Notes under the pieces: model-generated
Told to the model about the DNA's origin: nothing
The model's input: the letters and a program-made list of their open reading frames with translations, nothing else
Databases searched by the model: none
Assembly: GCA_963765205.1 (NCBI GenBank)
Contig: CAVXVB010000008.1
Coordinates: forward strand, 65,076 to 129,075
From: an uncultured Verrucomicrobiae bacterium
Lineage (GTDB): Bacteria; Verrucomicrobiota; Verrucomicrobiia; Opitutales; JABDGR01
DNA: 64,000 nt
Direction: 5' to 3'
Made by a program: the position numbers and the translations under genes
Shown: one piece after another, positions 2,205-18,800 of the stretch
Position numbering within the stretch: position 1 is the first letter of the stretch
Layout: every line of letters starts with the position of its first letter

Positions 2205-2813
2205 CTACAACACCAAAGCGATTTGCACGCCGGGACCATGCACCCCTTCGATGAGGATGCCTTCGATGTCCGCCGTCTTCGACGGGCCGGTGACCCAGAT
2301 CACGTTCGGATCGCCCCCGAAGGCGAGCACGGCGTCGGTCAGCGTGCGGAGAATTTGCCCGCGCGGCAGCACGGCGATATGCACCCAGGGTGCGAGCGCG
2401 CCGAGGCGCCGCGAGGTCAGCGTGTCATTGAGGATAATCGTGCCTGTCTCGGCGATGCCGCCGGCGGCGCGCGTGATGCCAAAGGCAAAATCATCCACGC
2501 GCGTGCGGTCAAACTCGGTTTCGAGCGTAAACTCCGGGCCGAAAGACGCGGCGAATTGGGCCAACAGGGCGGGGTCGCAATAACCGCGGAGCCACCCGCC
2601 ATTTTTCAAAAATGTGGCAACCGCCGCAATGTCGGTCATCACCATCGCATTGGCGAACTTGATGCGCTCGGCGAAATCGTCGAACGGGTCGCGGTGCTCG
2701 ACGAGTTTGCGCGCGATGGCCAATTCCTTGTCCCAGTCGGGCAGCGCGGCGCGCTCCGGCAGCATCGCCAAAGCGGCCTTCACGCGGCCCAACATGTCTT
2801 CGCGCGCATTCAT
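2205..2813 (-). CDS. lutC: lactate utilization protein C (LUD domain)
   Basis: MNAREDMLGRVKAAL... is LutC/YkgG-like. The start overlaps the lutB stop (ATGA at 2810-2813). The upstream part of track ORF 2205..3308 is Arg-rich shadow sequence. Confidence 0.8.
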   Translation of the reverse strand: MNAREDMLGRVKAALAMLPERAALPDWDKELAIARKLVEHRDPFDDFAERIKFANAMVMTDIAAVATFLKNGGWLRGYCDPALLAQFAASFGPEFTLETEFDRTRVDDFAFGITRAAGGIAETGTIILNDTLTSRRLGALAPWVHIAVLPRGQILRTLTDAVLAFGGDPNVIWVTGPSKTADIEGILIEGVHGPGVQIALVL

Positions 2814-4255
2814 GATTTTCCTTTCGGGGTTGGGCGGTTTTTCAGCCAGTGGCGGAATTCGCCGCCGCGCCAGGGCGGCAGCGTGCGGTAATCCTGCCAC
2901 TTGCGCAACGGGCCAGGCATCAGGATGCGCGGGACGTGGTTCACCGCGCCGCCCAGCGCCAGCGCCGCCTTCCACGCCGCGGGCTGGCTCGCCAAAACCG
3001 ACCACGCGCCCATCGGCGGCGTGCCCGACGACGGCCCGTGCGCGCGCTTGTTCTTGTCGCGCAGACGCAGCAGCAAATCCGGAATCGGGATGTTGACCGG
3101 GCACACTTCCTGGCACGCGCCGCACAGGCTCGAGGCCTTGGGCAAATCCGCCAGCTCGGGAAATTCTTCCTTCGCGAGCAAGGGCGACAACACCGCGCCG
3201 ACCGGGCCGGGATACACGCTGCGGTAGGCGTGGCCGCTGGCCTGTCGGTAAACCGGGCACACGTTCAGGCACGCGCCGCAGCGGATGCAGCGCAAAATGT
3301 CGCGGCACTCGGTCGCCAGCACGTCAATGCGCCCGTTGTCCACGAAGATGATGTGCATCTCGTCCGGGCCGTCGGGCTGCGTGGGTTTGCGCGGGCCGGT
3401 GATGAATTCCGTGTAAACCGTCAACTGCTGCGCGGTGGCCGAGCGGGCGAGCAGGTTGAGCAGCAGCGCGAGGTCGCGGTCGCGCGGCAAAATTTTCTCG
3501 ATGCCGACCATGGCGATGTGGCAGCGCGTGGCCGCCAGGCAGAAGCGCGAGTTGCCCTCGTTGGTGACGAGCACCAGCCGCCCGCTTTCCGCCACGACAA
3601 AGTTCGCGCCGGTCAGCCCCACGTCGGCCTGCAGATATTTTTGCCGCAGGAAGGCGCGCGCGCGCTGCGTGATGACGTTCGGGTCGTCGTTGTAGGCCCC
3701 CAGGCCGTTTTTCTCGAAGCACACCGCGACCTCGCGCCGGCTTTTGTGAATGATGGGGCGCACGATGTGGCTCGGGTGGTCGTGGTCCACCTGCACGATG
3801 AATTCGCCCAGGTCGGTTTCCAGGCACTCGACGCCGTTCTTCTCGAGAAAATGCGCGAGTTCCGTCTCCTCGCTCACCATGGTCTTGGCCTTGACGATCT
3901 TGGTCGCGTTGCGCTGGCGCATGATGGCGAGCACGGCCTCATTGGCGGCTGCGGCGTCCGGCGCCCAATGCACCTGCGCGCCGTTGGCCCGCAGCTTTTC
4001 CTCGACCGCCGGCAGGTAGGTGTCAAGGTTCTCGATGACGTGCTGCTTGATCTCGCCCGCGATCTCGCGCAGCCGGTTCGCGTCCGGGAAATGGTCGAAC
4101 AGCACCTTCGTGCGCTTCTCGTGCGTCGCCTTGGTGCTTTTATAGACGGAATTGTGCGTCTCGGCCGTCAAATGCGCGGCAAACGTGTCAATGGGGGAAG
4201 CGCTCATGCGAAAGGGGAAAGGACGCATCGTGCCCGCCCCGAGCGCGTTTGACAA
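2810..4255 (-). CDS. lutB: lactate utilization protein B, 4Fe-4S iron-sulfur protein
   Basis: Two ferredoxin-type Cys clusters (CIRCGACLNVCPV and CGACQEVCPV) plus a LUD domain. An alternative start is the Met at 4207. Confidence 0.9.
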   Translation of the reverse strand: MSNALGAGTMRPFPFRMSASPIDTFAAHLTAETHNSVYKSTKATHEKRTKVLFDHFPDANRLREIAGEIKQHVIENLDTYLPAVEEKLRANGAQVHWAPDAAAANEAVLAIMRQRNATKIVKAKTMVSEETELAHFLEKNGVECLETDLGEFIVQVDHDHPSHIVRPIIHKSRREVAVCFEKNGLGAYNDDPNVITQRARAFLRQKYLQADVGLTGANFVVAESGRLVLVTNEGNSRFCLAATRCHIAMVGIEKILPRDRDLALLLNLLARSATAQQLTVYTEFITGPRKPTQPDGPDEMHIIFVDNGRIDVLATECRDILRCIRCGACLNVCPVYRQASGHAYRSVYPGPVGAVLSPLLAKEEFPELADLPKASSLCGACQEVCPVNIPIPDLLLRLRDKNKRAHGPSSGTPPMGAWSVLASQPAAWKAALALGGAVNHVPRILMPGPLRKWQDYRTLPPWRGGEFRHWLKNRPTPKGKS

Positions 4256-4356
4256 TCAAAAGTGTGGGGCCGAAAAAGGCGCAATTTCATTGAATGCTCC
4301 GTTGGCGCAATTGGCGCGTTTCTTCCGTCCCGGGAAGCGCGACCGTCCCGGTCGCT

Positions 4357-4469
4357 GCGGTCGGCGTCCCGCCGACCGCCTCTTGGCAAATGCCAGCAAT
4401 GCGTCTCGCGCAGCCGATTCTCGAAGATGTCCTCGGCGAGACGCCGAGGACGGCGGGCGGGACGCCCGC
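4357..4469. repeat. cluster of three GC-rich perfect hairpins (REP/BIME-like)
   Basis: gcggtcggc/gccgaccgc at 4357-4379; gtcctcggcg/cgccgaggac at 4429-4451; gcgggcg/cgcccgc at 4453-4469. All lie in the lutB upstream intergenic region. Confidence 0.6.
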
Positions 4470-4733
4470 GCTCCCCGGGACAAAACCGCCGCATCCAAAA
4501 GCCCCAAAACAATTCTGAGTTGGTATAAGCTCCTTCAGAGCGCAAAATTATTTATACCCACAGATTCCCAGGGTTGCTCCGGCTGCAGCCCGAACAACCC
4601 TAGGGTGGCCTGCCCCCTTCGATCGGCCTCGTGCAACTGGCCTACAACCTGCCCGAAGCCCTGAACACCGTCGGCCTCAAGATCAAAGCCGCCGTGCATC
4701 CGCGGAAAGCGACGCGAAAGGATGGTTCTAGGC

Positions 4734-5586
4734 AGGTAATAAGGTGCAGCCTGACCCTCTATTGGCCCTCATGCCATGTTGTAGTTTGGTAAAAATTTCT
4801 TGTTAAACTCGATAGCAACCGAAGGCTTCCAATGATACTGCCCTTTCATATAATTTGAAAGGCCAGCGGCGTCCATGCAATCGAAACCGCCGATAGCCTG
4901 AGCGTCAAAATCACCCGGAGCTGCAATCACGATCAGCTCCCAGGAAATTCGGTCGCAAAATATTCCCCACTTGAGTGACGATCCCCAAAAAGCTCCAATA
5001 TCTACGCCAGCTAAAAACATTGGGCCATTTCGTACGCAATACATTGTAGACACGTATCTGTCAGTCAAATCCGCTGGCTTAAAAGAAGCTAGGCCGAAAA
5101 AGGAATTTCGCGGATAGTATCCATCGACTGGGTGCGGCTCTATCGTGATGTAATTGACCAACTCGTCGCCGAAATAACTGGCCGCTTTAAAGAGAAACGA
5201 CCCAAATTCCTTTTTGTAGATATAATGGTATCCAATAACAAAATATTTGGCGAAGGAACGTTTAAAAACAAAATCTGGCAGACGCTTTTGCATATCGATA
5301 ATTCCCGCACATTCTCGACTAAGAATGGAAAACGTGTCTCTTTCAACAACTATTTCGTTGGTGTTCATTATTATTTTCCTGTGCCAAAGTTTATCTTAAG
5401 TGGGAGTGCATCTGGGTCGGCTGGCATATAATCCGCTGCATTACCACCGGGGGCCGGAAAGGTCTCAGGCTGCACCTTATTACCCGAGTTTTTGGTGGAA
5501 GGATTGGATTGGAGGTTAGTGGCGCGAAGACGGCGGGCCGGAAAGGGGTCAGGGCCCGAAAGGGGTCAGGCTGCACCTTATTACCT
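4734..5586. mobile_element. AT-rich single-gene cassette bracketed by a perfect 24-bp inverted repeat (MITE-like; no transposase)
   Basis: aggtaataaggtgcagcctgaccc at 4734-4757 is the exact reverse complement of 5563-5586. An extra right-end copy sits at 5464-5483. A roughly 49-bp unit is directly repeated at 5464-5512 and 5566-5614. Confidence 0.35.
4769..5368 (-). CDS. hypothetical protein (AT-rich orphan, no recognisable domain)
   Basis: 199-aa ORF in markedly AT-richer DNA than its flanks. It sits between the inverted repeats. Confidence 0.6.
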   Translation of the reverse strand: MNTNEIVVERDTFSILSRECAGIIDMQKRLPDFVFKRSFAKYFVIGYHYIYKKEFGSFLFKAASYFGDELVNYITIEPHPVDGYYPRNSFFGLASFKPADLTDRYVSTMYCVRNGPMFLAGVDIGAFWGSSLKWGIFCDRISWELIVIAAPGDFDAQAIGGFDCMDAAGLSNYMKGQYHWKPSVAIEFNKKFLPNYNMA

Positions 5587-5633
5587 GAGTTTTTCATGTA
5601 GGATTGGATTGGGCTTGCTGGCGCAAAGAGTCA

Positions 5634-7019
5634 TCATGGAGTCGCCGTGGCCGCCGGTGCAGAGGACGCTGCCGGCGCGCCCGCGGTCTTCGTCGGGGCG
5701 TCCAGGCCGGTGCCGGTGACGTTGGTGAGGTTCAGCAAATTTCCGGTGAAGCCGGTGACGGTGATGTTGTTAAAGTTGGCGTTGACGACGTTCGCCAGGG
5801 TGATGCCGCGCTGGCAGGTGCCGGTAATGTTCGCGAGGGTCAGGCCTTCGATGGGCCGTTCGGGCGCGACGCCGGGGCCGGCGCGGCTGGCCTGCGTCTC
5901 GAAGAGCGTGCGGACGTTGTTGACTTTGATGTTCGTGAAACTGAGGTTGCGCACCAGGGTCCATTTCTCGATATCGCCGGGCACCGGCTCGGCGGCCTGG
6001 ATGCCTTTGGAAATCAGGTCAATGCCGACGAAGGTTGGCGAGGCGTCCACGGTGAGATTGTCGAAGGAAATGTTTTCCATATAGCCGCCGCGGCCGTCGC
6101 GGCTTTTGATGAAAATGGCGTTTTGCACGCCGGAAATCGTGCAGTTCGACACGGTGACGTTGCGCACGCCGCCGGAGATTTCCGTGCCGAAGCCGAGCGC
6201 GGCAAAGCGGACGCTGCGCAGGGTGCTGTCCTTGATGACGATGTTTTCCGAGGGTTTGTTGTAGCGCACGGCTTCCATCCCGCGCCCGGATTTGATGGAG
6301 ATGGCGTCGTCGCCCGCGCTGATGTCGCAATTCTCGACCACGACGTTGGCGTCGGAGTCTAGGTCCATGCCGTCGCCGTTGGTGCCCTGGCTGCGGATGT
6401 AGAGGCCCTTGACGACGACGTTGGTGCAAAACATGGGATGGATGCACCAGATGTCGGTGTTGACGGTGCGGTCGTATTGCAGGCTGAAGCCGTCGAACGT
6501 CACGTCGTTGCAGTCAATCGTTTCGAGGACGACGGGCGCGCGCGGGTTGCGGAGCGAGGCGAGGCCGGCGTTCGCCACGAAGCCGCCTGGCCCGACAATC
6601 GCAATGTGCTCGGCCTGGCTGGCAAAAATCATGGCGCGGTGCACCTGGGTCGTCGCGCCTTCAAAGCGCCCGGTGACGAGCGGGTAGTCGGCGATGTCCG
6701 GCGATTCGATGACGAACACGTCCTTTTCGAGTCGGAGCGTCGTGTTCGAATGCAGCTCGACGCTGCCGATGATATAATTGCCCGCAGGCACAACGACTTC
6801 GCCGCCGCCGGCCGCCGCGCAGGCGTCGAAAGCTTTTTGGAAGGCGGCGGTGTTATTCGTCGCATTGTCGCCGACCGCGCCGTAATCGCGCACATTGAAT
6901 TGCGCGGCGGCCTTGGCCGATGGGGCCGGGGAGGGTGCCGTGGCTTCAGCCGCTCCAATTGGGGTGCCAGCGAGGATCAGTAGACTAAGAATAGAAAGGG
7001 AAAGCGCGGTAGTTTTCAA
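5634..7019 (-). CDS. glycoside hydrolase family 28 (polygalacturonase/rhamnogalacturonase-like), secreted
   Basis: Signal peptide MKTTALSLSILSLLILAG. GH28-type motifs GTNGDGMDLD and AGDDAISIKSG. Parallel beta-helix repeat pattern. Confidence 0.8.
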   Translation of the reverse strand: MKTTALSLSILSLLILAGTPIGAAEATAPSPAPSAKAAAQFNVRDYGAVGDNATNNTAAFQKAFDACAAAGGGEVVVPAGNYIIGSVELHSNTTLRLEKDVFVIESPDIADYPLVTGRFEGATTQVHRAMIFASQAEHIAIVGPGGFVANAGLASLRNPRAPVVLETIDCNDVTFDGFSLQYDRTVNTDIWCIHPMFCTNVVVKGLYIRSQGTNGDGMDLDSDANVVVENCDISAGDDAISIKSGRGMEAVRYNKPSENIVIKDSTLRSVRFAALGFGTEISGGVRNVTVSNCTISGVQNAIFIKSRDGRGGYMENISFDNLTVDASPTFVGIDLISKGIQAAEPVPGDIEKWTLVRNLSFTNIKVNNVRTLFETQASRAGPGVAPERPIEGLTLANITGTCQRGITLANVVNANFNNITVTGFTGNLLNLTNVTGTGLDAPTKTAGAPAASSAPAATATP

Positions 7020-7160
7020 GGGGCGGAGGGGGTTAAGATGGTGAACATAAGCGGCTTGGAGGCAAAGTCCAGCCGATTAAAACCGAGCGAAAGAGGAAAA
7101 GTTGTTCGCAAAATATATTTAATTGATTGCATTCGCTCATTTATTGCATATATTGTTTTT

Positions 7161-8045
7161 ATGAGAGTGGCGAAACATGTAGTCGAGGCCCGTCGGCGCC
7201 GTCTGGGCGAGCTTTTACAACGGCATCGTTATCTGGGGATTGCGGATTTATGCAAGGAGTTTGGCATATCCGAGGCGACGGTGCGCCGTGACCTCGTTTC
7301 CCTCGAAAAAAGCCATCTCATCACCCGCACTTTTGGGGGCGCGCTCGCGGACTACAATTTGCGTTTTCCTTCGTTTCGCAGCCGCCGGGCCACGGGGATG
7401 CAGGGCAAGCAGGCCATTGCCCAGCAGGCGCTGGAATTGATCAGGCCGGAGTCGGTGATTTACCTGGATGCCGGCACCACGATTTTCGCCCTGGCAGAGG
7501 CCATTCGGGTCGCGCCGGTGCGTCCGTTGAGTTGCGTTACGAGCAACCTGCCGGCGGCGGACTTGCTGGCGGAAGTCGAGGGCGTCGCCGTGTATTTGCT
7601 CGGCGGGCAGGTGCTGCGCCGGCAATCGGTGCTCTTGGGCGACGAGGCCTGCCGCAGCGCGGCCTATTGGAAATTCGATCTGACCTTTCTCGGCGCGGAG
7701 GGCATGACCCGCGAGGGATTGTGGAATTCATCGCCAGCCGTCGTCGCGCTACAGAAGGCGGTCATCGCGCAGAGCCGCGCGACGGCGGTCTTGCTCGACC
7801 GTACCAAGCTGGGCCGCACTGCGCATACTTTTCTCGGAGGATGGGACATGGTTACGGCTCTTTTAACCGATGCACCGGCTGAAGCGCTCAAGGTAGAGGG
7901 AATACCGGATTATATGACTGATATTAGTCATATAGCGTCGTATGTGCCGCAGGCTCCATTAAAGTCAAACGCTGAAATTGAGCAGAAAATATATTTTGAA
8001 GAACCTGAAAATAATGGGTTGACACTCCCGACCTCGCTTTTATGA
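7161..8045 (+). CDS. DeoR-family transcriptional regulator (PVM BMC locus regulator)
   Basis: Start taken at the Met at 7161 (MRVAKHVVEARRRRLGELLQ...). HTH GISEATVRRDLVSLE plus a DeoR C-terminal sugar-phosphate sensor domain. The AT-rich 3' tail encodes about 45 extra residues. Confidence 0.8.
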   Translation: MRVAKHVVEARRRRLGELLQRHRYLGIADLCKEFGISEATVRRDLVSLEKSHLITRTFGGALADYNLRFPSFRSRRATGMQGKQAIAQQALELIRPESVIYLDAGTTIFALAEAIRVAPVRPLSCVTSNLPAADLLAEVEGVAVYLLGGQVLRRQSVLLGDEACRSAAYWKFDLTFLGAEGMTREGLWNSSPAVVALQKAVIAQSRATAVLLDRTKLGRTAHTFLGGWDMVTALLTDAPAEALKVEGIPDYMTDISHIASYVPQAPLKSNAEIEQKIYFEEPENNGLTLPTSLL

Positions 8046-8091
8046 TTGCAAGCAGTCATAAAAGGTTAAAGGACTAATTTACCCCTGACTC

Positions 8092-8766
8092 ATGGCCGCG
8101 CCATTGCCCAACCGTTCTCTTGTCGAATCGTTGATTCGCCAGTCGCTCTTTGCGCAACTGGGGCGCGAGTCGTCCGTGGCCGCGCCGCCGACGCTCGTGG
8201 TCAACAGTTCCGCGCGCCACATGCACCTGACGCAGGAGAATGTGGAAATACTTTTTGGCAAGGGCACGCAATTGACCGTTCACAAGTGGCTTTATCAGGA
8301 GGGGCAGTTTGCCTCGGGGCAGACCGTCACGCTCGTCGGCCCGCGCGACCGCATCATCCCGAACCTGCGCATTCTCGGCCCCTGCCGCAACCTCACGCAA
8401 ATCGAACTAGCTTACACGGACTCGATTTACCTCGGCATCAACGTTCCGGTGCGCGCTTCGGGCGACATCAAAGGCTCGGCGGCGGGCGTGGTGATCGGGC
8501 CGAAAGGCGTCGTCGAAATGAAGGAAGGCATCATCCGCGCGGCGCGGCACGTCCACATGAGTCCGGCGGATGCGGCTTATTACGGCGTGAAGGCCGGCGA
8601 GCACATGACCCTGCGCGTCGAATCGCAAAAATGCTCGACGCGCTTTGACGACCTGCTGGTGCGCGTGGACCCGTCCTTCAAGCTCGAGGTGCATATTGAC
8701 ACGGACGAGGCGAATTGCTGCGACCTGGCCCGCGCGCAGCGCTGCGAGCTGGTGCGCCAGGGCTGA
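8092..8766 (+). CDS. pduL: phosphate acyltransferase PduL
   Basis: Two PduL repeats with His motifs (SARHMHLT, AARHVHMS). N-terminal amphipathic helix SLVESLIRQSLFAQL looks like an encapsulation peptide. Confidence 0.85.
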   Translation: MAAPLPNRSLVESLIRQSLFAQLGRESSVAAPPTLVVNSSARHMHLTQENVEILFGKGTQLTVHKWLYQEGQFASGQTVTLVGPRDRIIPNLRILGPCRNLTQIELAYTDSIYLGINVPVRASGDIKGSAAGVVIGPKGVVEMKEGIIRAARHVHMSPADAAYYGVKAGEHMTLRVESQKCSTRFDDLLVRVDPSFKLEVHIDTDEANCCDLARAQRCELVRQG

Positions 8767-8830
8767 ACATTTTTTGACCGAATTAACAAAATTAATAAAA
8801 TCAACCAAAACATCCTAAACACCTAATTAT

Positions 8831-9103
8831 ATGAATGACGCCATCGGACTGATTGAAACCAAAGGTTATGTCGGCCTCGTCGAGGCCAGCGACGCCATGG
8901 TGAAGGCGGCCAACGTCTCTCTGGTAAAACATATCCAGATTGGCGGGGCCTTCGTCACCACCATCGTGAAAGGCGACGTTGGCAGCGTGAACGCGGCGGT
9001 GACCGCCGGCAAGGAGGCCGCGCAGCGCGTCGGCAACCTGGTGGCCGCGCACACCATCGCCCGCCCCGCGGCCGGCCTGCTCGACTTCTTCATCGGCGCC
9101 TAA
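8831..9103 (+). CDS. BMC-H shell protein (Pfam00936-type hexamer)
   Basis: [29 protein letters not shown]... is a canonical PduA/EutM-like sequence. Confidence 0.9.
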
Positions 9104-9158
9104 ACGCCACCTAAAAACTAAAAAAACAGAAACCAGAAAACTTCAACCCATTACTACC

Positions 9159-9458
9159 ATGTCAGGACAAGCCATCGGAATGTTGGAAACCAAAGGCCTC
9201 ACCGCCCAATTCGAAGCGACCGACGCGATGCTCAAAGCCGCGACGGTCGAATTGCTCGGCTGGGAAAAAGTCGGCTCCGGCAATGTCGCCGTCTTCGTGC
9301 GCGGCGATGTCGCCGCGGTGAAGGCCGCCGTCGAAGCCGGCGCGACCGCCGCGGCCGCGATTGGCGAAGTCGTCGCCGTCAACGTCATCCCGCGCCCGCA
9401 CGACGATTTGCACCTGCTCGGCAAATTCCTGTCGAAGGCCGCCGCGCCCGCCAAGTAA
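9159..9458 (+). CDS. BMC-H shell protein
   Basis: [34 protein letters not shown]... Confidence 0.9.
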
Positions 9459-9526: not shown

Positions 9527-10720
9527 ATGGGCAAAATTCTCGTGGCCAACATCGGCAGCACCTCGTTCAAGTTCCGCTTGTTCGAGATGCCCGGCGAGCA
9601 ACTGCTTGCCAAGGGCGGCGTCGAGCGCATTGGCGCCGCCGACAGCCCGTGGCGTGTCGAGATCACGGGGCGCGCGCCGGCAGCGGGGACGGCGAAGTTT
9701 GCCAATTGCGACGAGGCCATCGCCCATGTGGAAAACGCGTTGCGCGGCACCGTGCTCGCGGGTTTCCATGAATTGGCGGCGGTCGGCTTTAAACCCGTGA
9801 TGGCCAAGGGCGTCAGCGGCACGCAGGTGATGGATGAAAAAGTACTGGGCGCGATGGAGGCGCTTTACACGCTGCTGCCCGCGCACAATCCGCCCTACGT
9901 CAACGCGGTACGCACGTTCAACCGGCTCTACCCGAAGCTGCCGTGCATCGGCACGTTCGAGACCGCGTTCTACGACCACCTGCCGGTCGAGAACACGCGC
10001 TTCCCGGTGCCGCTCGAATGGGAGCAAAAATTGGGCATCCGGCGCACGGGCTTTCACGGCGCGAGCCATCGGTTTGTGACCGAGCGTTTCGCGCAAATCA
10101 AAGGGCGCGCGGACTTGCGCCTCATCTCGTGCCACCTCGGCGGCAGTTCCTCGATCTGCGCCGTGCGCGCGGGAAAAGCGATTGATTCAAGCTGGGGGAT
10201 GACGCCGCAAAGCGGCCTGCCGCAGAGCAACCGCGTCGGCGATTTCGACGTGTTCGCGGCGTTCTACCTCGCGAAAGACCTGGGTCTCGGCCTTGAGCAG
10301 GTTGAAAAACAGTTGTCCACCAACGCCGGGCTCAAAGGCATGTCGGGCCTGGCCACCGGCGACGTGCGCGATGTCGCGGAAGCCGCCGCTGCCGGCAACG
10401 AAAACGCGCGCACCGCCCTCGCCGTTTTTAGCAATGCCATTCGCGGTTATCTCGGGCGCTTTCTCGTCGCGCTCAATGGCGCGGATGCCCTCATCTTCAC
10501 CGCCGGCATCGGCGAAAACCGGGTTGAGCTACGCGCAACCGTCTGCGCCGACCTTGATTTCTGCGGGCTGAAACTCGATGCCCAGGCCAACGCCACTACG
10601 CACGCCACCGAGGCGAAAATCTCCGCGCCCGACTCCAAAATCGAAGTCTGGGTGATTCCGACTAATGAAGAAATTGTGATCGCACGCAACGCGTGGGCGA
10701 AGCTGCAAGGAAGGAATTAA
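9527..10720 (+). CDS. ackA: acetate/propionate (acyl) kinase
   Basis: 397 aa. ASKHA-fold AckA signature regions (ILVANIGSTSFKF, RRTGFHGASH, IPTNEEIVIAR). Confidence 0.9.
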   Translation: MGKILVANIGSTSFKFRLFEMPGEQLLAKGGVERIGAADSPWRVEITGRAPAAGTAKFANCDEAIAHVENALRGTVLAGFHELAAVGFKPVMAKGVSGTQVMDEKVLGAMEALYTLLPAHNPPYVNAVRTFNRLYPKLPCIGTFETAFYDHLPVENTRFPVPLEWEQKLGIRRTGFHGASHRFVTERFAQIKGRADLRLISCHLGGSSSICAVRAGKAIDSSWGMTPQSGLPQSNRVGDFDVFAAFYLAKDLGLGLEQVEKQLSTNAGLKGMSGLATGDVRDVAEAAAAGNENARTALAVFSNAIRGYLGRFLVALNGADALIFTAGIGENRVELRATVCADLDFCGLKLDAQANATTHATEAKISAPDSKIEVWVIPTNEEIVIARNAWAKLQGRN

Positions 10721-11636: not shown

Positions 11637-11643
11637 CCAAATA

Positions 11644-11725
11644 AATGGAAGATGGAAAAATCAAGCCAGACAAAAACTAAAATCCACGGACAATCGTAGA
11701 AAGTTTTTTCCATTTTCCATCTTCC
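11644..11725. repeat. stutter-word inverted repeat (atggaagatggaaaa / ttttccattttccatcttcc)
   Basis: Left arm at 11644-11660, right arm at 11705-11725, between the BMC-P and aldehyde dehydrogenase genes. Confidence 0.6.
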
Positions 11726-11752
11726 TTTTTCCATTCCCAACTCCCTCTTCCC

Positions 11753-13177
11753 ATGGACCAGCAGCAAATCATCTCTCGCGTCGTGGCCGAGGTGCTCGCG
11801 CGCCTGCAGACGCAGCAGTCCGCCGCGCGCAGCGGGCAGACCGGCTTCGGCGTTTACGACAAGATGGAGGACGCCATTGCCGCCGCGCAAAAATCATTCG
11901 TGCAATTGCGCGAGGAGGGCGTGACGGCGCGCAAGAAGGCCATCGCGGCGATCCGGCGCACCTGCGTGCAGAACGCGAAAGCGTGGGGCGAAATCGAATT
12001 CGCTGAGACGAAAATCGGCCGCCTCGAACACAAAATCGAAAAGCTCAAAATCTGTTCGGAGCTGGTGCCGGGCGTCGAGATGCTGGAACGCATGGCCTTC
12101 AGCGGCGATTTCGGGCTGACGATCATTGACTTCGCGCCCTGGGGCGTCATCGGCGCGGTCACGCCGGCCACGCACAGCGTGCCGACGCTCACGGGCAACG
12201 CCATAAACATGCTGGCGGCGGGCAACAGCGTGGTTTACAACACGCATCCCTCGGCCTGCGGCGTCGCGGCACTGGCCATCCGCGCCTACAACGAGGCGAT
12301 TTTTGCGGAGACCGGCATTCCCGACCTGCTGGCCACGGTCGTCAAGCCCACACTCCAGACCTTTGACGTGATGTGCAAGCATCCCGATGTGAAATTGCTT
12401 TGCGTCACCGGCGGCCCGGCGGTCGTCGCGGCGGCGATGAAGGCCGGCAAGCGTGCGGTTTGTGCCGGCCCGGGCAATCCGCCGGTGGTGGTGGACGAAA
12501 CGGCGTGCCTCGAACGCGCGGCGCGCTGCATCATCCAGGGCGCGGCCTACGACAACAATTTGCTCTGCATCGGCGAGAAACAGGTATTTGTCGTCGAGTC
12601 GGTCGCCGACGGCCTCATCACCGCGCTCAAAAACGCGGGCGCGGTGCAACTTTCGCCGGCCCAGATTGAGGCGCTGACGAAGCAGGCGTTCACGATTGAG
12701 CCGGGGCAGGGCGGGGGCTGCGCGCACGCGCACGTCACCAAATCCTTCATTGGGCGCGACGCCGCGGTGCTGGCGAAGGCGATCGGCCTCGACGTGCCGC
12801 CGGCCACGATGCTCCTGTTTGGCGAAACCAAGGAAGACCACCTCTTTGTGCAGGAGGAGCAGATGATGCCCTTCATCCCGATAGTGCGCGTGAAGAATGT
12901 GGACGAGGCCATCGCCGCGGCCATCCGCAGCGAGCACAACTACAAGCACACGGCCATCATGCACAGCCGCAACATCACGAACCTCACCAAGTTCGCCCAA
13001 CTCGCCGACACCACGCTTTTCATCAAAAACGGCCCGTGCATGACCGGCCTCGGCCTCGGCGGCGAGGGCTTCCTCTCCTTCTCCGTCGCCACCCCGACGG
13101 GCGAAGGCGTGACGACGCCGATGACGTTCACGCGGTCGCGGCGGTGCGTGATGGTGGAGAACCTAAATCTTTATTAA
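11753..13177 (+). CDS. CoA-acylating aldehyde dehydrogenase (PduP/EutE-like) with N-terminal encapsulation helix
   Basis: 474 aa. ALDH fold with a catalytic Cys context (NNLLCIGEK). N-terminal QQQIISRVVAEVLARLQ amphipathic helix. Confidence 0.85.
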   Translation: MDQQQIISRVVAEVLARLQTQQSAARSGQTGFGVYDKMEDAIAAAQKSFVQLREEGVTARKKAIAAIRRTCVQNAKAWGEIEFAETKIGRLEHKIEKLKICSELVPGVEMLERMAFSGDFGLTIIDFAPWGVIGAVTPATHSVPTLTGNAINMLAAGNSVVYNTHPSACGVAALAIRAYNEAIFAETGIPDLLATVVKPTLQTFDVMCKHPDVKLLCVTGGPAVVAAAMKAGKRAVCAGPGNPPVVVDETACLERAARCIIQGAAYDNNLLCIGEKQVFVVESVADGLITALKNAGAVQLSPAQIEALTKQAFTIEPGQGGGCAHAHVTKSFIGRDAAVLAKAIGLDVPPATMLLFGETKEDHLFVQEEQMMPFIPIVRVKNVDEAIAAAIRSEHNYKHTAIMHSRNITNLTKFAQLADTTLFIKNGPCMTGLGLGGEGFLSFSVATPTGEGVTTPMTFTRSRRCVMVENLNLY

Positions 13178-13262
13178 TGGAAAATAGAAAAATAAAACCC
13201 AAAACCGAATTTATTTTCCACCAACTTCCGCCATTTTTTCCAGCTTCCATTTTCCATCTTTT
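13176..13262. repeat. stutter-word inverted repeat (aatggaaaatagaaaaa / ttccattttccatc)
   Basis: Same word family as 11644-11725. Located between the aldehyde dehydrogenase and the second BMC-P. Confidence 0.5.
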
Positions 13263-13268
13263 ATTCTT

Positions 13269-13547
13269 ATGCGTTTGGCCATCATCCGCGGTTATGTCAC
13301 CTCGACCGTGAAGCACAAAAGCTTCAACGGCGCGCGGCTGCTCATCGCGCAACCGGTGGACCTGGCGGACAAGCCGGACGGGCCGCCGCAGGTGGTCGTG
13401 GACCCGCTTGGCACGGCGCTGCACGAAAAAGTTATTCTCTGCAGCGACGGCAGTTGGGCGCGCACTTATTTGAAGGACCCGCGCAGCCCGTGCCGCTGGT
13501 GGATCATGGGCATCGTGGACGAAGCCACGGAAGGGAGCGTCGCATGA
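13269..13547 (+). CDS. BMC-P vertex protein (EutN/CcmL family)
   Basis: MRLAIIRGYVTSTVKHKSFNGARLLIAQP... Confidence 0.8.
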   Translation: MRLAIIRGYVTSTVKHKSFNGARLLIAQPVDLADKPDGPPQVVVDPLGTALHEKVILCSDGSWARTYLKDPRSPCRWWIMGIVDEATEGSVA

Positions 13548-13840
13548 GGCTCGCTACCGTCATCGGCCGGGTCACGCTCTCCGTGCGGCATCCGGCGCTC
13601 AACGGCGAACGCCTGCTCGTCGCGCTGCCGTGGGGGCCGAAAACGGCGCAGACCGGCCAGGACCACGATTATTCCATCGTCGTTTACGACCAGTTGGGCG
13701 CCGGCCCCGGCGGCACCATCGGCGTGTGCGAAAGCACCGAGGCCACCCGCCCGTTCGAGAAACCCACGCCCGTGGACGCCTATTGCGCCGCGCTGATTGA
13801 CACCGTTTTTTACCAACCCGAGGACCCGCACCGCGCGTGA
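13544..13840 (+). CDS. BMC-P vertex protein (EutN/CcmL family)
   Basis: Met at 13544 (MRLATVIGRVTLSVRHPALNGERLLVA...). ATGA overlap with the preceding gene. The upstream part of the track ORF is not coding-like. Confidence 0.8.
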   Translation: MRLATVIGRVTLSVRHPALNGERLLVALPWGPKTAQTGQDHDYSIVVYDQLGAGPGGTIGVCESTEATRPFEKPTPVDAYCAALIDTVFYQPEDPHRA

Positions 13841-13876
13841 TGCCCGGCTTTGGCCGCGCTCTGCGCCCCATCCATT

Positions 13877-14968
13877 ATGAAACTCTTCTCCCAAAAAGAA
13901 GCCGCTGAATTTGCCAAATCCGGCGTCAAGGAATTCCGCTTCAGCCGCGAATCCACGCGGATGACGCCCGGCGCGCGCGACGTGCTCGTCGCCGCCGGCG
14001 TCAAAATCATCTACGACCCCAACGCCGGGGCCGCGCCGACTGCCGCGCCCGCCGCGGCCAAGCCCGCCGAGCCGGCGAAAAGCGCCGCGTCCGCGCCCGC
14101 CGCCTCGAAGGGCGACATCCTCGCGCTGTTTAATTCGCCGCTCGCGAAAAAACTCAAGGACGACATTGTTGAAATCGGCAGCCGCTGCTGGAAGCGCGAT
14201 TACAACGACGGCAACGGTGGCAACATCTCCGCCCGCCTCGGCAATTATTTTCTCTGCACGCCCACCGGCGTCAGCAAGGGTTTCATGAAGCCCGACATGG
14301 TCTGCCTCGTGGACGTCGAGGGCAACCAGCTCGCCGGCAACGCCCCCTGGAAGCGCACGAGCGAAATCCTCTCGCACCTCGGCATCTACAAAACGGTGCC
14401 GACCGCCGCCGCCGTCGTCCACGCGCACCCGATCCACGCCACGGCGTTTGCCATGGCTGGCCTCGAACCGCCGCAATGCCTCATTCCCGAGGTCGAGGTT
14501 TTTGTCGGCACGATCCCCGTCGCCGAATACAAGACGCCCGGCAGCCCGCAGATGAGCGAAATTCTCGGGAAACTCGCGCCGCAGCACCAGTCCATCCTGA
14601 TGGGCAACCACGGCGTGATCTGCTGGGGCGTCAGCGTCGAGGACGCCTATTTCAAGATGGAGATCACGGACTCCTACTGCCGCACGCTCTGGGTCGCCGC
14701 GCAGTTGCCGACCAAGCGCACGACCATCCCGGCCAACGAGGTTAAAATCCTGCTCGACCTCAAAAAGAAATTGGGCCTGCCCGACGAGCGCCTGAATTTG
14801 AAGACCGCCGACCTGTGCGATTGCGACCCCTGGGAGCAAATCGCCGACCGGCAGGTGACGAGCGCGACGCCCGCCGGCCCCTCACCCGCGAAAATGACCA
14901 ACGCCGAACTCGAAGGCCTCGTGCAAAAACTCACCGAGGAAGTGATGGGGCAGTTGGGGAAGAAGTGA
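13877..14968 (+). CDS. class II aldolase (fuculose/rhamnulose-1-phosphate aldolase-like) with N- and C-terminal extensions
   Basis: The aldolase_II core runs from about residue 100 onward (GNGGNISARL..., HAHPIHATAF). It carries a 45-aa N-terminal domain, an Ala/Pro linker and a C-terminal amphipathic helix (AELEGLVQKLTEEVMGQLGKK). Confidence 0.8.
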   Translation: MKLFSQKEAAEFAKSGVKEFRFSRESTRMTPGARDVLVAAGVKIIYDPNAGAAPTAAPAAAKPAEPAKSAASAPAASKGDILALFNSPLAKKLKDDIVEIGSRCWKRDYNDGNGGNISARLGNYFLCTPTGVSKGFMKPDMVCLVDVEGNQLAGNAPWKRTSEILSHLGIYKTVPTAAAVVHAHPIHATAFAMAGLEPPQCLIPEVEVFVGTIPVAEYKTPGSPQMSEILGKLAPQHQSILMGNHGVICWGVSVEDAYFKMEITDSYCRTLWVAAQLPTKRTTIPANEVKILLDLKKKLGLPDERLNLKTADLCDCDPWEQIADRQVTSATPAGPSPAKMTNAELEGLVQKLTEEVMGQLGKK

Positions 14969-15018
14969 AGTCGCGTTCTGTCTTGCTTGAGTTTAGCTAT
15001 CAGGAATAGCTTCCAAGC

Positions 15019-15657
15019 ATGTCACCGGCAGATGTTGCTCTCGTTGTCACCGAACTCAAAAGGCTTGGCCCCATCCAACCTTCGTCGGATCGTTGCTGGA
15101 AGCGGCTTCCGGCATTAAAGGCGATTGATTGTGTTTTATCCTTAAACCGGCATTACGATCACTTCGTTGTTCCACGACTCGATCGGTTTGAATCGTCGTA
15201 TCCTGCTGTTCAAAAAATTCAGGATTTGCGCGGATTCATCAATACATTTCCGACACTGGCAGTTTTTATGGAAAAAGCATTGGATTATCATGATGCGGCT
15301 AGGGCGGAAACTTTATCGGGAGTGGTGGATTATGTTATAGGCGAGATTCAACGAATGAAGATGGATTCAGAAGAAACTTCGCTTAAAAAATGGGCGAATG
15401 ATGCCCGCCCACAAGATTATTTGATGGTGCATGTCCATGGTTTTGGACTGGCGGGCTTTCAATACCTGCGAATGCTCTTTGGCGCAAACACCACCAAGCC
15501 CGATGTCCATATTCGCGCTTATGTGGGCAAGGTGCTAAACCGTTCCGTGAGTGATTTGGAGGCGCTTGATTTCTTGCAGCATGCCGCGGAGCAGAGCGGC
15601 GTGAAACTCCGGGACTTGGACACGACGATTTGGGAGGCATCCGCGCGCGGTGCGTAA
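15019..15657 (+). CDS. hypothetical protein with helix-hairpin-helix (HhH-GPD-like) motif
   Basis: AT-richer 212-aa ORF. GFGLAGFQYLRMLFGANTTKPDVHIRAYVGKVL resembles the HhH plus following-helix motif of the EndoIII/glycosylase superfamily. The assignment is weak. Confidence 0.5.
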   Translation: MSPADVALVVTELKRLGPIQPSSDRCWKRLPALKAIDCVLSLNRHYDHFVVPRLDRFESSYPAVQKIQDLRGFINTFPTLAVFMEKALDYHDAARAETLSGVVDYVIGEIQRMKMDSEETSLKKWANDARPQDYLMVHVHGFGLAGFQYLRMLFGANTTKPDVHIRAYVGKVLNRSVSDLEALDFLQHAAEQSGVKLRDLDTTIWEASARGA

Positions 15658-15662
15658 GCGAG

Positions 15663-15938
15663 TTAATCAAATTTCCCGCTTTGGTTCAGGCGATGCACTT
15701 CGGTGTGATTGCCGAGAAACTGGACGTGAAGACCGTCCTGGGCATCCAGGAAAACGAGGCGCCAATGCAACCCCGCCCGGCACTCGAAAGTGTGTCGCCG
15801 CAATTTGCGGATGTCGAGGCCACTGTGGAGATGTGGCTGGCCGAATTCCTCGCACAAGCGGCCCAGAGCGAGCCAGCAGGCCTGCTTTTCCAATTCAGGC
15901 AGAACGGCGATTTTTGCCTGGACGGTGGACAGAATGAT
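15663..15938 (-). CDS. RelE/ParE-superfamily toxin (start codon unresolved)
   Basis: The C-terminal 90 aa (...LPELEKQACWLALGRLCEEFGQPHLHSGLDIRKLRRHTFECRAGLHWRLVFLDAQDGLHVQFLGNHTEV) fit the RelE/ParE-like pattern. There is no ATG near the domain start. It overlaps the antitoxin 3' end. Confidence 0.55.
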   Translation of the reverse strand: MILSTVQAKIAVLPELEKQACWLALGRLCEEFGQPHLHSGLDIRKLRRHTFECRAGLHWRLVFLDAQDGLHVQFLGNHTEVHRLNQSGKFD

Positions 15939-16221
15939 GAGCGATTTTTTCGCGCAGTTGTTCAGGGGTGAAACGATATTTTTCCAATTCGCCGGAGGCG
16001 CGCAGGCGTTCAGCCAGTGCTTCAGAAGCGTCGGCGAGCCGGTCAAGTTGTTCCTCCGTCACGCCGTATTCGCGCTGGGCGTAGTCGGAGGACTCGATGG
16101 GCACCTTGCGCAGGGCGATGATGTCGGCACCGCTGACAATGCCGATATCCTGGCCGGCCGCGGCGGCTTTGAGCCACTTGCCGAGGTTTTGCTTCGCGCT
16201 GGTGATGGTGAGAGTATGCAT
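15895..16221 (-). CDS. Phd/YefM-type antitoxin
   Basis: MHTLTITSAKQNLGKWLKAAAAGQDIGIV... has a typical Phd/YefM N-terminus. It lies directly upstream of the toxin frame. Confidence 0.65.
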   Translation of the reverse strand: MHTLTITSAKQNLGKWLKAAAAGQDIGIVSGADIIALRKVPIESSDYAQREYGVTEEQLDRLADASEALAERLRASGELEKYRFTPEQLREKIAHHSVHRPGKNRRSA

Positions 16222-16336
16222 ACAGCCTTTATAGAGATTTTTAAGAGGCTGTCAAGATTGGCTTGGGACACCATCGTGTGGTTTCTCTCTTTTGGTTTTA
16301 CACCATGCGCGGAAACGGGCACAATCTTGTTTTCTT

Positions 16337-17749
16337 ATGGCTTCTGTAACCTGTGCGGCGGTGGATTTGGGCGCGACGAGCGGGCGCGTCATCGTCGGCG
16401 TCTGGGGTAAAAAGCCTGCGCTGACGGAGGTTCACCGTTTCCCGAACGCCTTCCACGCCCTCGGGGTTCACGATTACTGGAACCTGCCTGGATTGTGGAA
16501 TGAGGTGTGCACGGGCCTGCGCAAGGCGAAGGCGCAGTTCCCGAAGCTCGCGTCCGTCGGCGTGGATTTTTGGGGGTGCGACCATGTGCTACTCAACGAC
16601 GCCGGGCGCCTCGTGTTCCCGCCGCACGCCTACCGCGACGCCCGCACGCAGGCCGGCCTCCAGGCGCTGGCCGCGCGCGGCCTCGACCACATCTACGCCG
16701 CCACCGGCCTGCCGAACGTCTTCTATAATTCGAGCCTCCAACTCGCGGAAGTCGTGCGCAACTGCCCGGCCGTCACCGACCTCGCCACGCGCTGCCTGTT
16801 TTTGCCGGACTATTTCAATTACCTGCTCGCGGGGCGGATGGAGAATGAAATGTCCATCGCCAGCACCACGCAATTGCTCGACGTGCATGGGCGGGACTGG
16901 TCGCGCGCGGCGCTCGAATTTTTTCATATTCCCCCGCAATGGTTCACGCCGCCGGTTTTGGCGAACACGAAGCTCGGCCGCGTGCGCGGGCTGCCGGAAC
17001 TCAAGAGCGTCACGTCCATTGTCGTCCCGGGGCACGACACCGCGTGCGCCTACGACGCGATGCCGGCCGACCCCGCGGGCGGCGACTTGTATATCAGTTC
17101 CGGCACCTGGTCGCTGGTCGGCTGCGAGAACGACACGCCGATCCTCGGCCCCGAGGCGCTCCAGGCCCACGTGGCCAACGAACGCACCGGCCGCGGCGGT
17201 TATCGTCCGCTCACGAACATCGTCGGCCTCTGGCTGCTCGAACGGACGCTGCTCGATTTCAGCGCGCGCCCGCAGAGCGCCGGCGAATGGGCCGCGCTCA
17301 TCAAAGCCGCGGAAAAATTGCCCGCGCCGAAAGTCCTGCTCGACGTGAACGACCCGGTTTTCGGCAACCCCCCCTCGATGCGCGCCGCGATTGACGCGCA
17401 GCTCAAAAAGAAAAAAGCCCGGCCGCCGGCGAACGTCGCGGGCTACGCGCGCCTGATTTTCGACTCGCTCGGCGCGGGCCATGCCGGCGCGTTGCGGATG
17501 CTCGCGCGCCTCGGCGGGAAAACCTTCCGGCGCATCCTCATGGTCGGCGGCGGCGCGAAAAACCGGCTGCTCTGCCAGGCGACGGCCGACGCCGCGGGCG
17601 TGCCGGTCGTGGCCTTCGCGCTCGAAGGCACCGCGCTGGGCAACCTCGCCAGCCAGTGGGTCGCCCTCGGCGTGGTCCGCGACCGCGCGGCCTTCCGCGC
17701 CCACCTCGCGCCCACCCTCCAGCAAACCATTTACACGCCCCGCAATTAG
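16337..17749 (+). CDS. rhaB: rhamnulokinase (FGGY family)
   Basis: From the Met at 16337: MASVTCAAVDLGATSGRVIVG...GVDFWGCDHVLL...AYRDARTQ...LFLPDYFNYLLAG... This aligns in pattern with RhaB. Confidence 0.8.
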   Translation: MASVTCAAVDLGATSGRVIVGVWGKKPALTEVHRFPNAFHALGVHDYWNLPGLWNEVCTGLRKAKAQFPKLASVGVDFWGCDHVLLNDAGRLVFPPHAYRDARTQAGLQALAARGLDHIYAATGLPNVFYNSSLQLAEVVRNCPAVTDLATRCLFLPDYFNYLLAGRMENEMSIASTTQLLDVHGRDWSRAALEFFHIPPQWFTPPVLANTKLGRVRGLPELKSVTSIVVPGHDTACAYDAMPADPAGGDLYISSGTWSLVGCENDTPILGPEALQAHVANERTGRGGYRPLTNIVGLWLLERTLLDFSARPQSAGEWAALIKAAEKLPAPKVLLDVNDPVFGNPPSMRAAIDAQLKKKKARPPANVAGYARLIFDSLGAGHAGALRMLARLGGKTFRRILMVGGGAKNRLLCQATADAAGVPVVAFALEGTALGNLASQWVALGVVRDRAAFRAHLAPTLQQTIYTPRN

Positions 17750-17813
17750 GCTGACTTTCCGCCGGGAATCTGTCTCAAAATTGAAAAACGAAATGATTTC
17801 GCACGAATGCCGC

Positions 17814-17883
17814 GGGCGCAGCAAGCCTGCGCCCCTACAAGAGAACCGACGCGACCCTGGAGGGGCGCAGTCTCGCTGCGCCC
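17814..17883. repeat. REP-like palindrome pair (gggcgcagcaagNctgcgcccc family)
   Basis: Hairpin at 17814-17835 and an inverted copy at 17862-17883. Other copies are at 19041-19062 and 28306-28375, with a degenerate copy near 31041-31075. Confidence 0.7.
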
Positions 17884-17918
17884 GCTTCGAAAGGAGTTTG
17901 CGCGGAATTTTTTCTTTG

Positions 17919-18028
17919 CCGCCTCAGTGCCTCAGTGTCTCAGTGCCTTAGTCCCTCAGTCGCCTCAGTCGCTTTAGTCGCCTCAGTGCCTTTGTCCCTC
18001 AGTCCCTTTGCCCCTTCGCCCTCTCCTC
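17919..18028. repeat. degenerate tandem 8-9-mer array (cctcagtgc)n forming the lutA leader
   Basis: About 11 consecutive variants of cctcagtgc / cctcagtcg / ccttagtcc end 2 nt before the lutA start. Confidence 0.7.
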
Positions 18029-18029
18029 A

Positions 18030-18800
18030 ATGAGCACCCCCTCCCCCACCCGCCCGACCGGCCACCGCGTGCAAATGCTCGCCACCTGCCTGTGCGACGC
18101 GTTTTTCGACGACGCCGCGCGCGCGACCGTCGAGGTGCTCGAACACCTCGGCTGCGCCATTGATTTTCCCGAGACGCAAACCTGCTGCGGGCAGCCGGCG
18201 TTCAACGCGGGCGACTGGCCGGCCTCGCGGCGCGTCGTGCGGCACACCGTAAAAGTTTTTGCCGGCGACGCGCCGGTCGTCGTGCCCAGCGCGTCCTGCG
18301 CGGCCATGCTCATCCACGGCGCGCCCCTCGAATTTGAAAAAGAAGCCGACCACGGCAACGTCGAAAAACTCGGCGGGCGCACCTGGGAACTCGCGGACTT
18401 CATTGTCAACGGCCTCGGCGTGAAAACGTGGCCCGGAAAATACCCGGCGAAAATCGCGTTCCACACCTCCTGCCACTCGCGCGGCACGAAAAGCGGCGAG
18501 GCGACGATCAGTTTGCTGCGCTCCATCGCGGGCGTGGAAGTCGTCGTTTTTGGCGAAGGCGAGCAATGCTGCGGTTTCGGGGGCACGTTCTCGGTCGCCT
18601 TCCCGAATATTTCGACCGGCATGGGCAACCTAAAACTCGAACACGTCCGCGCGGCCAATCCCGACGTGCTCGTCTCCGGCGACTCGAGCTGCCTGATGCA
18701 CCTCGCCGGCCTGGCGGAAAAAGAAGGCCACCCCCTCCGCACCCTCCACTTCGCGCAAATTTTAAGAGACGCGCTGAAGAACGGCGGGGTGCTCGGGTAG
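18030..18800 (+). CDS. lutA: lactate utilization protein A (CCG-domain Fe-S oxidoreductase)
   Basis: Two CCG motifs (TCCGQPAFN, QCCGFGG). LutA/YkgE-like. An alternative start is the Met at 18075. Confidence 0.85.
   Translation: MSTPSPTRPTGHRVQMLATCLCDAFFDDAARATVEVLEHLGCAIDFPETQTCCGQPAFNAGDWPASRRVVRHTVKVFAGDAPVVVPSASCAAMLIHGAPLEFEKEADHGNVEKLGGRTWELADFIVNGLGVKTWPGKYPAKIAFHTSCHSRGTKSGEATISLLRSIAGVEVVVFGEGEQCCGFGGTFSVAFPNISTGMGNLKLEHVRAANPDVLVSGDSSCLMHLAGLAEKEGHPLRTLHFAQILRDALKNGGVLG

Follow-up and report, generated by a model that had tools for sequence, protein, structure and literature searches.

The 64,000-nt stretch of contig CAVXVB010000008.1 analysed here (the window; assembly GCA_963765205.1, an uncultured Verrucomicrobiae bacterium) encodes a bacterial microcompartment (BMC) locus together with a secreted GH28 glycoside hydrolase, a rhamnulokinase-like kinase and the three genes of a LutABC-type L-lactate oxidation system. 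Very probably the locus is a verrucomicrobial variant of the Planctomycetes/Verrucomicrobia-type (PVM) BMC locus, in a genome that appears Opitutales-like. The lut genes are parted between its two ends, a layout that we attribute to one recent, lineage-specific inversion. Our high confidence is a joint one, given to the PVM identity of the locus, the route proposed for its enzymes and the single inversion taken together.

Genes were called from a listing of open reading frames (ORFs) with Pfam and NCBIfam profile searches, and PADLOC was run on the ORFs without a family. A preliminary description, made from the sequence alone, had listed lutC-lutB, GH28, DeoR, PduL, three BMC-H, AckA, three BMC-P, an acylating aldehyde dehydrogenase (ALDH), a class II aldolase, the kinase and lutA, and all of these were recovered at or near the positions it had given them (Table 1). 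Its order required correction: GH28 belongs at the left, where it diverges from DeoR, and the kinase at the right, just before lutA. The span additionally holds three ORFs missing from its list (4769-5368, 15019-15657 and 15663-16046). The absence of BMC-T that it reported is borne out, because all shell genes (three BMC-H and three BMC-P, 90-103 aa) are single-domain, and tblastn found no further BMC or lut copies within the 64-kb window. The lut genes do occupy opposite ends of the locus (2205-4207, minus strand, for lutBC and 18030-18800, plus strand, for lutA), and each of the three is intact and single-copy in the window. Rfam returned one tRNA as the sole match over the window.

Table 1. 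Features of the window, with strand and the profile matches or alignments behind each call
Feature	Coordinates	Strand	Basis
up266, lipoprotein-like conserved gene	1439..2239	-	no Pfam, NCBIfam or PADLOC family
lutC, LUD-domain subunit	2205..2813	-	PF02589 70.3 bits; no NCBIfam match
lutB, LUD domain, two 4Fe-4S clusters and LutB_C	2810..4207	-	PF02589, PF13183, PF11870; TIGR00273 455.9 vs cutoff 444.8; 465 aa
Left junction interval of the probable inversion	4266..5688	.	relatives' homology stops at 4208-4265 (lutB side) and resumes at 5689-5701 (GH28 side)
orf199, low GC at third codon positions (GC3)	4769-5368	-	no Pfam, NCBIfam or PADLOC match
Secreted GH28 (galacturonidase/rhamnogalacturonidase-like), divergent from DeoR	5634..7019	-	PF00295, PF12708; signal-peptide-like N-terminus
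DeoR-family regulator, PvmA-like	7161..8045	+	PF08220, PF00455; 294 aa as in relatives
PduL phosphotransacylase	8092..8766	+	PF06130 231.6 bits; NF011652 232.6 vs 209; aligns to rPduL 5CUO
First BMC-H shell gene	8831-9103	+	PF00936, one domain
Second BMC-H shell gene	9159-9458	+	PF00936, one domain
Acetate/propionate-family kinase AckA, PvmG-like	9527..10720	+	PF00871 320.9 bits; TIGR00016 310.5 vs 293.4
Third BMC-H shell gene	10923-11213	+	PF00936
First BMC-P shell gene	11325-11636	+	PF03319
Acylating ALDH, PduP/EutE type	11753..13177	+	PF00171; NF011927/PRK15398 611.7 bits vs 403
Second BMC-P shell gene	13269-13547	+	PF03319
Third BMC-P shell gene	13544-13840	+	PF03319
Class II aldolase, PVM signature enzyme	13877..14968	+	PF00596 150.6 bits, residues 105-280 of the 372-aa ORF
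orf212, low GC3	15019-15657	+	no Pfam, NCBIfam or PADLOC family
orf127, small conserved ORF	15663-16046	-	no match in Pfam or PADLOC, the two libraries scanned
Rhamnulokinase-like FGGY kinase (rhaB)	16337..17749	+	PF00370, PF02782
lutA, two CCG domains	18030..18800	+	PF02754, two stretches, 96.6 bits
Right junction interval of the probable inversion	18802..19087	.	homology to relatives breaks off at the lutA stop and is found again from 19088-19098, upstream of SMC
SMC	19245..23042	+	PF02463
RhaEW-type bifunctional rhamnulose-1-phosphate aldolase/short-chain dehydrogenase	53844..56036	-	PF00596 and PF00106

The lut products resemble the LutABC/LldEFG/YkgEFG system in domain content: LutA has two CCG domains, LutB combines a LUD domain, two [4Fe-4S] clusters and LutB_C above the TIGR00273 cutoff, and LutC is a LUD protein. 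LutB is equal in length to the LutB of relatives. The locus departs from that system in that lutA and lutBC are ~13.8 kb apart and on opposite strands, so that the lut genes do not form one contiguous operon here. The kinase scores best against the rhamnulokinase family yet stays below its cutoffs (TIGR02627, 350.7 vs 527.95; NF007925, 343.5 vs 639), and it reaches only 83 bits against the fuculokinase family. We infer its specificity, for rhamnulose or fuculose, from this best-family score. The top NCBIfam matches of GH28 fall far under their cutoffs. The aldolase carries an N-terminal extension of ~90 aa and a C-terminal helix-like tail; aldolase gene calls in L081, L164, L167 and L169 are 362-364 aa long (L-numbers denote loci or contigs of our survey).

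The composition of the locus is that of a PVM-type BMC, the type described for fucose and rhamnose breakdown via lactaldehyde, as the preliminary description had proposed. A PF00596 class II aldolase directly follows the BMC-P genes, the acylating ALDH and PduL of the metabolosome core both score above their cutoffs (NF011927, NF011652), and BMC-H genes are present with a triplet of BMC-P genes. A DeoR regulator and an acetate kinase, the ancillary genes named for PVM loci (PMC4207490), are likewise encoded (PF08220, PF00455, PF00871). We compared the locus with an ALDH-centred sample from species-representative genomes, which comprised 80 loci, each taken with at most 10 kb of either flank, out of at least 600 candidate stretches, and mapped synteny by tblastn with the window proteins. 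Collinear loci occur in both Verrucomicrobiota and Planctomycetota genomes, and the core order PduL-H-H-AckA-(H)-P-ALDH-P-P-aldolase does not vary among the mapped loci. Close homologues of the ALDH number in the thousands; the named ones come from Opitutales/Opitutaceae and other Verrucomicrobiota, the closest of them being Opitutales/Opitutaceae, and homologues of at least 77% identity are scattered across the Verrucomicrobiota.

The PVM model derives from Planctopirus (Planctomyces) limnophila and its genes pvmABDEGHIJKLMNO (Erbilgin et al. 2014), and the comparison below goes as far as the descriptions of that locus in PMC4207490, PMC4784909 and PMC11958385. Both loci have PduL, an acetate-type kinase, an acylating ALDH and a class II aldolase as signature enzyme in collinear order, and both have three BMC-P and no BMC-T. 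In both, DeoR comes first, followed by a spacer with a promoter-like site before PduL. In the window this is a sigma-70-like site (TTGACA-16-TATGAT, 11/12) at 8019-8046 (+), at the deoR 3' end and ahead of the 46-nt deoR-pduL spacer; the pvmA-pvmB pair of P. limnophila has a spacer of equal length and a predicted promoter (PMC11958385). Unlike P. limnophila, the window has three BMC-H rather than two, the third standing between the kinase and the first BMC-P, and it has GH28, rhaB and lut genes attached. Its shell count is thus balanced (3H = 3P), whereas in PVM loci BMC-P genes usually outnumber those for BMC-H (PMC4207490) and the planctomycete loci carry 2H + 3P. In the ALDH-centred maps the third BMC-H is kept in verrucomicrobial loci and missing from planctomycete ones. 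The N-termini of ALDH (MDQQQIISRVVAEVLARLQ) and PduL and the C-terminus of the aldolase look amphipathic, which suggests putative encapsulation peptides.

Nucleotide alignment to L001, the closest genome locus (ALDH 94% identical), divides the region into collinear pieces. Window 2200-4208, with lutBC, aligns reversed to L001 18728-16717; window 5701-18793, from GH28 to lutA, aligns forward to L001 4222-16694; and window 19098-20596, with SMC, which lies upstream of GH28 in L001, aligns reversed to L001 1498-2. The left flank beyond lutC is still collinear. These three pieces and the flank are the signature of a two-breakpoint inversion, and we consider it highly probable that the window differs from its relatives by one such inversion of the ~13-kb GH28-to-lutA block (~5689-18801). 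Its breakpoints would have lain in the lutA-lutB spacer and in the stretch separating GH28 from SMC, and the event would have placed lutA and lutBC at opposite ends of the locus. The breakpoints were narrowed to the two junction intervals of Table 1 by alignment to L167 and L170.

An assembly artefact of the source contig, with lutABC contiguous in the true genome, could produce the same picture. At the left junction, independent Logan contigs break off in repeats (37-nt inverted repeats and a third partial copy), and REP-like (repetitive extragenic palindromic) palindromes lie near the right junction. The separately assembled Logan contig L164, however, is 99.9% identical to window 13214-19297 and runs unbroken from BMC-P through lutA to the start of SMC, and two more Logan contigs from different runs (L165, L166) match window 4512-5591 exactly. 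No long inverted repeat pairing both breakpoints was found, and the junctions carry unique DNA rather than a common repeat. Together these points make an artefact highly unlikely.

The arrangement in relatives indicates the direction of the change. We complemented the ALDH-centred sample with a LutA-centred scan of metagenome contigs, which gave the 80 closest LutA loci (69-90% identity), and with further close relatives found through exact-protein look-ups, so that ~170 loci were examined overall. L001 reads GH28(-), DeoR(+) ... aldolase, RhaB, LutA, LutB, LutC, up266, unbroken. The same order occurs in L081/L085 (ALDH 96%), L167 (95%), L168 (95%) and L170 (94%), and likewise in L084 and L088. 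In six or more independent close relatives, with ALDHs 93-96% identical, SMC(-), GH28(-), DeoR ... aldolase, rhaB, lutA, lutB and lutC stand in line; SMC(-) directly adjoins GH28(-) in L170 and L167, and GH28 is kept beside DeoR in L001, L081, L167, L169 and L170. LutC and LutA are 77-91% and 83-90% identical, respectively, to the proteins of these relatives, in which lutB follows lutA. Homologues of up266 (44-64% identity) directly follow lutC in L001, L084, L085 and L088, and genes of 248-249 aa occupy that position in L081, L167, L168 and L170. The window thus shares in-block order, a protein identity of 75-96% and the flanking genes (SMC, GH28, and up266 after lutC) with close-relative PVM loci such as JBEHYY010000029 (L001), CAZLPS010000016 (L167) and Ga0265320_10000108 (L081/L085). 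It differs from them in the inverted GH28-to-lutA block, where they have contiguous rhaB-lutA-lutB-lutC, and in its strain-specific orf199 and orf212 insertions.

In the LutA-centred loci with enough sequence, LutB is next downstream of LutA on the same strand in 71/72, and the exception has 869 nt downstream. Distant PVM loci (L009, L010, L045, L078) also carry contiguous lutABC, in varied positions and orientations. Since the three genes stand together in these loci as well as in 71/72 LutA loci, contiguous lutABC is, on the present sampling, ancestral, and the arrangement of the window is derived and so far unique among the surveyed loci. The preliminary description had read the bracketing by lutBC and lutA as an architecture of the locus and had proposed to check its conservation. 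We ran this check: the flanking position is conserved in none of the relatives examined, and all close relatives have rhaB-lutA-lutB-lutC downstream of the aldolase. A selected, conserved architecture, for instance one co-regulating both ends of the pathway, would agree with the intact state of the three lut genes and their co-orientation with outward transcription from the locus. It is scarcely credible given that none of the ~170 related loci shows it, that lutA and lutB are adjacent in every close relative and nearly all LutA-centred loci, and that the junction DNA is unique to the window strain. The eye-catching bracketed layout is instead best seen as the outcome of an inversion that happened once in an arrangement common among Verrucomicrobiota, a PVM locus followed by rhaB-lutABC, and has small import beyond annotation.

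Several relatives have additional genes in the lutA-lutB spacer. It holds 1.6-2.2 kb of inserted genes in L084, L086, L091, L167, L168 and L170, and the inserts inspected (L084 6781-8668; L167 16420-18470; L168 9066-10626; L170 15980-16972) each include a PIN-toxin gene. Their content comprises a lipoprotein-like ORF and the PIN-domain toxin with a small upstream partner, as well as a DUF433 protein in one. In these relatives the lut operon is interrupted already without a rearrangement. The window lacks the PIN/antitoxin insert that some relatives have in this spacer. Over the 58 nt upstream of lutB it is homologous to insert-bearing relatives, and therefore its ancestor probably had a spacer of the insert type, inside which the break fell. 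We rejected the idea that the junction DNA is a remnant of these inserts, as no similarity extends past those 58 nt, and no counterpart of the junction-interval DNA was found in any fetched locus. Inversion mediated by repeats was rejected as well: no inverted repeat pairs the two breakpoint intervals, and a REP-like palindrome occurs on the right side only.

The junction intervals have features of their own. On the left, a pair of 37-nt inverted repeats (4733-4769 and 5551-5587) brackets orf199, and the third partial copy lies at 5463-5484. Short Logan contigs from two different sequencing runs carry an identical cassette, which has the look of a small element that is mobile or was acquired recently. 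Between orf199 and lutB lies an imperfect GC-rich palindrome of ~165 nt (4325-4490, minus strand; -124 kcal/mol, z = -7.8 vs shuffles). It matches no Rfam family, and no full-length copy was found in the window or the fetched loci, the one partial match being 22 nt in L014. The REP-like palindrome of 24-28 nt (GGGCGCAGCAAGCCTGCGCCC) occurs intergenically, singly or as inverted pairs, at 17812-17885, 19039-19062 and 28304-28376, and the copy at 19039-19062 lies within the right junction interval. The stretch between aldolase and kinase (15019..16046) is a variable island that differs among relatives. Its portion 15663-16291 is kept in L081, L084, L085, L095 and L098. Relatives lack any homologue of orf212, which the independent contig L164 does carry; by this distribution it is a strain-specific insertion.

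The inversion may also have altered how the lut genes are transcribed. The inverted block would be transcribed outward at both ends, with lutBC now co-oriented downstream of GH28 and lutA still behind rhaB. Since GH28 and lutBC share a strand, with lutBC in the downstream position, transcripts from the GH28/DeoR divergent region could geometrically read through into lutBC, and both lut halves could be driven from the same DeoR-flanked locus. We speculate, with some doubt, that the inversion re-wired rather than crippled the lactate oxidase, whose subunits would then come from opposite arms of one DeoR-controlled divergent locus. If true, nature would have shown here that transcription and translation of LutA can be separated from those of LutBC with the complex still working. 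The promoter scan returned a strong site before pduL only, a result that neither supports nor excludes co-regulation. A candidate shared DeoR operator was sought as 14-mers with up to 2 mismatches upstream of lutB, GH28/DeoR, pduL, rhaB and lutA, and was dropped because only repeat-element and weak AT-rich matches appeared. The lutA leader (~17920-18010) is pyrimidine-rich and A-poor and holds degenerate CCTCAGT-like heptamer repeats, unlike the spacers of the BMC locus, which are A-rich with repeated GAAA/GGAA motifs.

The proposed pathway is built from the families assigned here and from the published PVM model (PMC4207490, PMC4784909, PMC11958385), which the first two papers give with lactaldehyde and lactyl-CoA. 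The rhamnulokinase-like kinase would phosphorylate the ketose, and the encapsulated class II aldolase would cleave the deoxy-ketose 1-phosphate into dihydroxyacetone phosphate (DHAP) and lactaldehyde. ALDH, PduL and the acetate-type kinase would then convert lactaldehyde via lactyl-CoA and lactyl-phosphate to lactate and ATP, and LutABC could oxidise L-lactate to pyruvate. The preliminary description had proposed this continuation from lactate to pyruvate, and the recurrent lut linkage in relatives fits lactate as a product. The route is, however, already published (PMC4207490, PMC4784909, PMC3870299, PMC11596606): the L-lactate dehydrogenase genes lldD and lldEFG were placed in rhamnose regulons and the pathway was extended to pyruvate (Rodionova et al. 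2013, PMC3870299), and in a 2024 Chthoniobacteraceae genome that also has a metabolosome cluster, the LutABC operon includes a rhamnulokinase gene (PMC11596606). Particular to the window is the inversion that parts lutA from lutBC. The description of the locus as a self-contained rhamnogalacturonan-to-pyruvate module was overstated, as it holds one GH28 and the kinase. Rhamnose/fucose isomerase, transporter, rhamnosidase and lyase families were absent among the window ORFs scanned, a few small ORFs being outside that scan.

The window resembles these rhamnose regulons and the Chthoniobacteraceae operon in the linkage of rhamnulokinase to lutABC, in the presence of RhaEW in the genome and in the inferred extension of deoxy-sugar catabolism through lactaldehyde and lactate to pyruvate. 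It differs from them in that its kinase-lut unit is joined to the end of a BMC locus and was then, on our reading, broken by the inversion. Among PVM loci with full flanks, lut genes lie within 10 kb in 6/25 verrucomicrobial cases, with four or more different arrangements, and in 0/22 planctomycete cases; in this sample the lut-PVM linkage is recurrent, confined to a minority of loci and restricted to one phylum. The comparison lends support to the view that Verrucomicrobiota often take the breakdown of deoxy-sugars through lactate to pyruvate.

Several observations weigh against parts of the reading that we favour. A Pfam search of the locus found no NAD+-recycling dehydrogenase, either of the lactate/malate-dehydrogenase family or Fe-ADH, and the former family was also absent from the other window ORFs scanned. 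This sets the window apart from P. limnophila, whose locus has a lactate/malate-dehydrogenase-family gene predicted to recycle NAD+ (PMC4207490). PduL retains Gln (EGQFA, PduL residue 72) at the position equivalent to Gln77 of rPduL, where P. limnophila and most other pvm PduLs have Tyr/Phe, which was proposed to suit lactyl-CoA (PMC4784909). The lut genes are tied more closely to rhaB than to the BMC: RhaB adjoins LutA in 56/67 of the LutA-centred loci (16 co-directional, 40 divergent), and PVM genes are in view in 6/80. No promoter was found directly upstream of lutB, and the GC-rich palindrome at 4325-4490, a stable hairpin between GH28/orf199 and lutB, could block read-through. Independent coverage of the left junction is partial (4512-5591), with 4266-4511 and 5592-5688 lying outside it.

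The PduL residue carries limited weight, as Tyr/Phe is a tendency reported from few loci and not a defining criterion of PVM loci. Across loci L001-L080, verrucomicrobial PduLs have Gln at this position in all cases except one Arg (L016), whereas planctomycete PduLs have Phe/Tyr in all cases except one His (L077). Judged from these loci, the Tyr/Phe signature published for lactyl-CoA use therefore belongs to one phylum and does not hold for PVM loci at large. This systematic difference between verrucomicrobial and planctomycete PVM loci (three vs two BMC-H, Gln vs Phe/Tyr in PduL) may interest microcompartment specialists.

The close tie of rhaB to lutA bears on another explanation, in which the lut genes would serve mainly a cytosolic rhamnose route from rhaB through RhaEW and LutABC to DHAP and pyruvate. 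The BMC would then be adjacent only through a shared role in deoxy-sugar catabolism, and its product need not feed LutABC. The window encodes a full-length RhaEW above equivalog cutoffs (NF006189, 1096 vs 634 bits; TIGR02632, 986.9 vs 567.75), and this family converts rhamnulose-1-P to L-lactate and DHAP in vitro with no compartment (PMC3870299). RhaEW is thus a candidate compartment-independent source of L-lactate, and the lut genes may serve it as much as the compartment. The preference of LutA for RhaB over PVM genes as neighbours agrees with this, as do five loci with RhaEW beside rhaB/lutABC (L094, L103, L113, L128, L149) and the presence of lldEFG in RhaR regulons of RhaEW-encoding bacteria (PMC3870299). 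Against it, lutABC stands beside PVM loci without rhaB in several independent arrangements (L045, L078), and RhaEW of the window lies ~35 kb away amid unrelated genes. L-lactate is predicted from both routes, so the two explanations are non-exclusive. We regard a mainly cytosolic role as a serious possibility, though a less probable one than the compartment-linked route to pyruvate set out above. With RhaEW and the compartment in one genome, one may ask which sugar is handled by each route.

Further rearrangements and insertions were seen around these genes in other genomes. In L169 (991-5439) genes for aspartate kinase, threonine synthase and a 125-aa protein directly abut GH28; their counterparts in the window lie at 24027-27064, beyond SMC. 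This differing left flank implies that the GH28-side boundary was rearranged more than once in the lineage. A gap of ~2.3 kb separates lutB and lutC in L108, L109, L119, L125, L131, L137, L143, L149, L157 and L161-L163. In L109 (6460-8736) it encodes a multi-pass membrane protein of 758 aa that, by appearance, may be an oligopeptide-transporter-type permease.

Elsewhere in the window, a lower-GC stretch at 32879-35702 is probably an integrated island. It includes a tRNA gene (35630-35702) beside a tyrosine-recombinase integrase (34466-35536, minus strand), and it encodes an Mrr-type restriction endonuclease with a Zn ribbon (32879-33952, minus strand).

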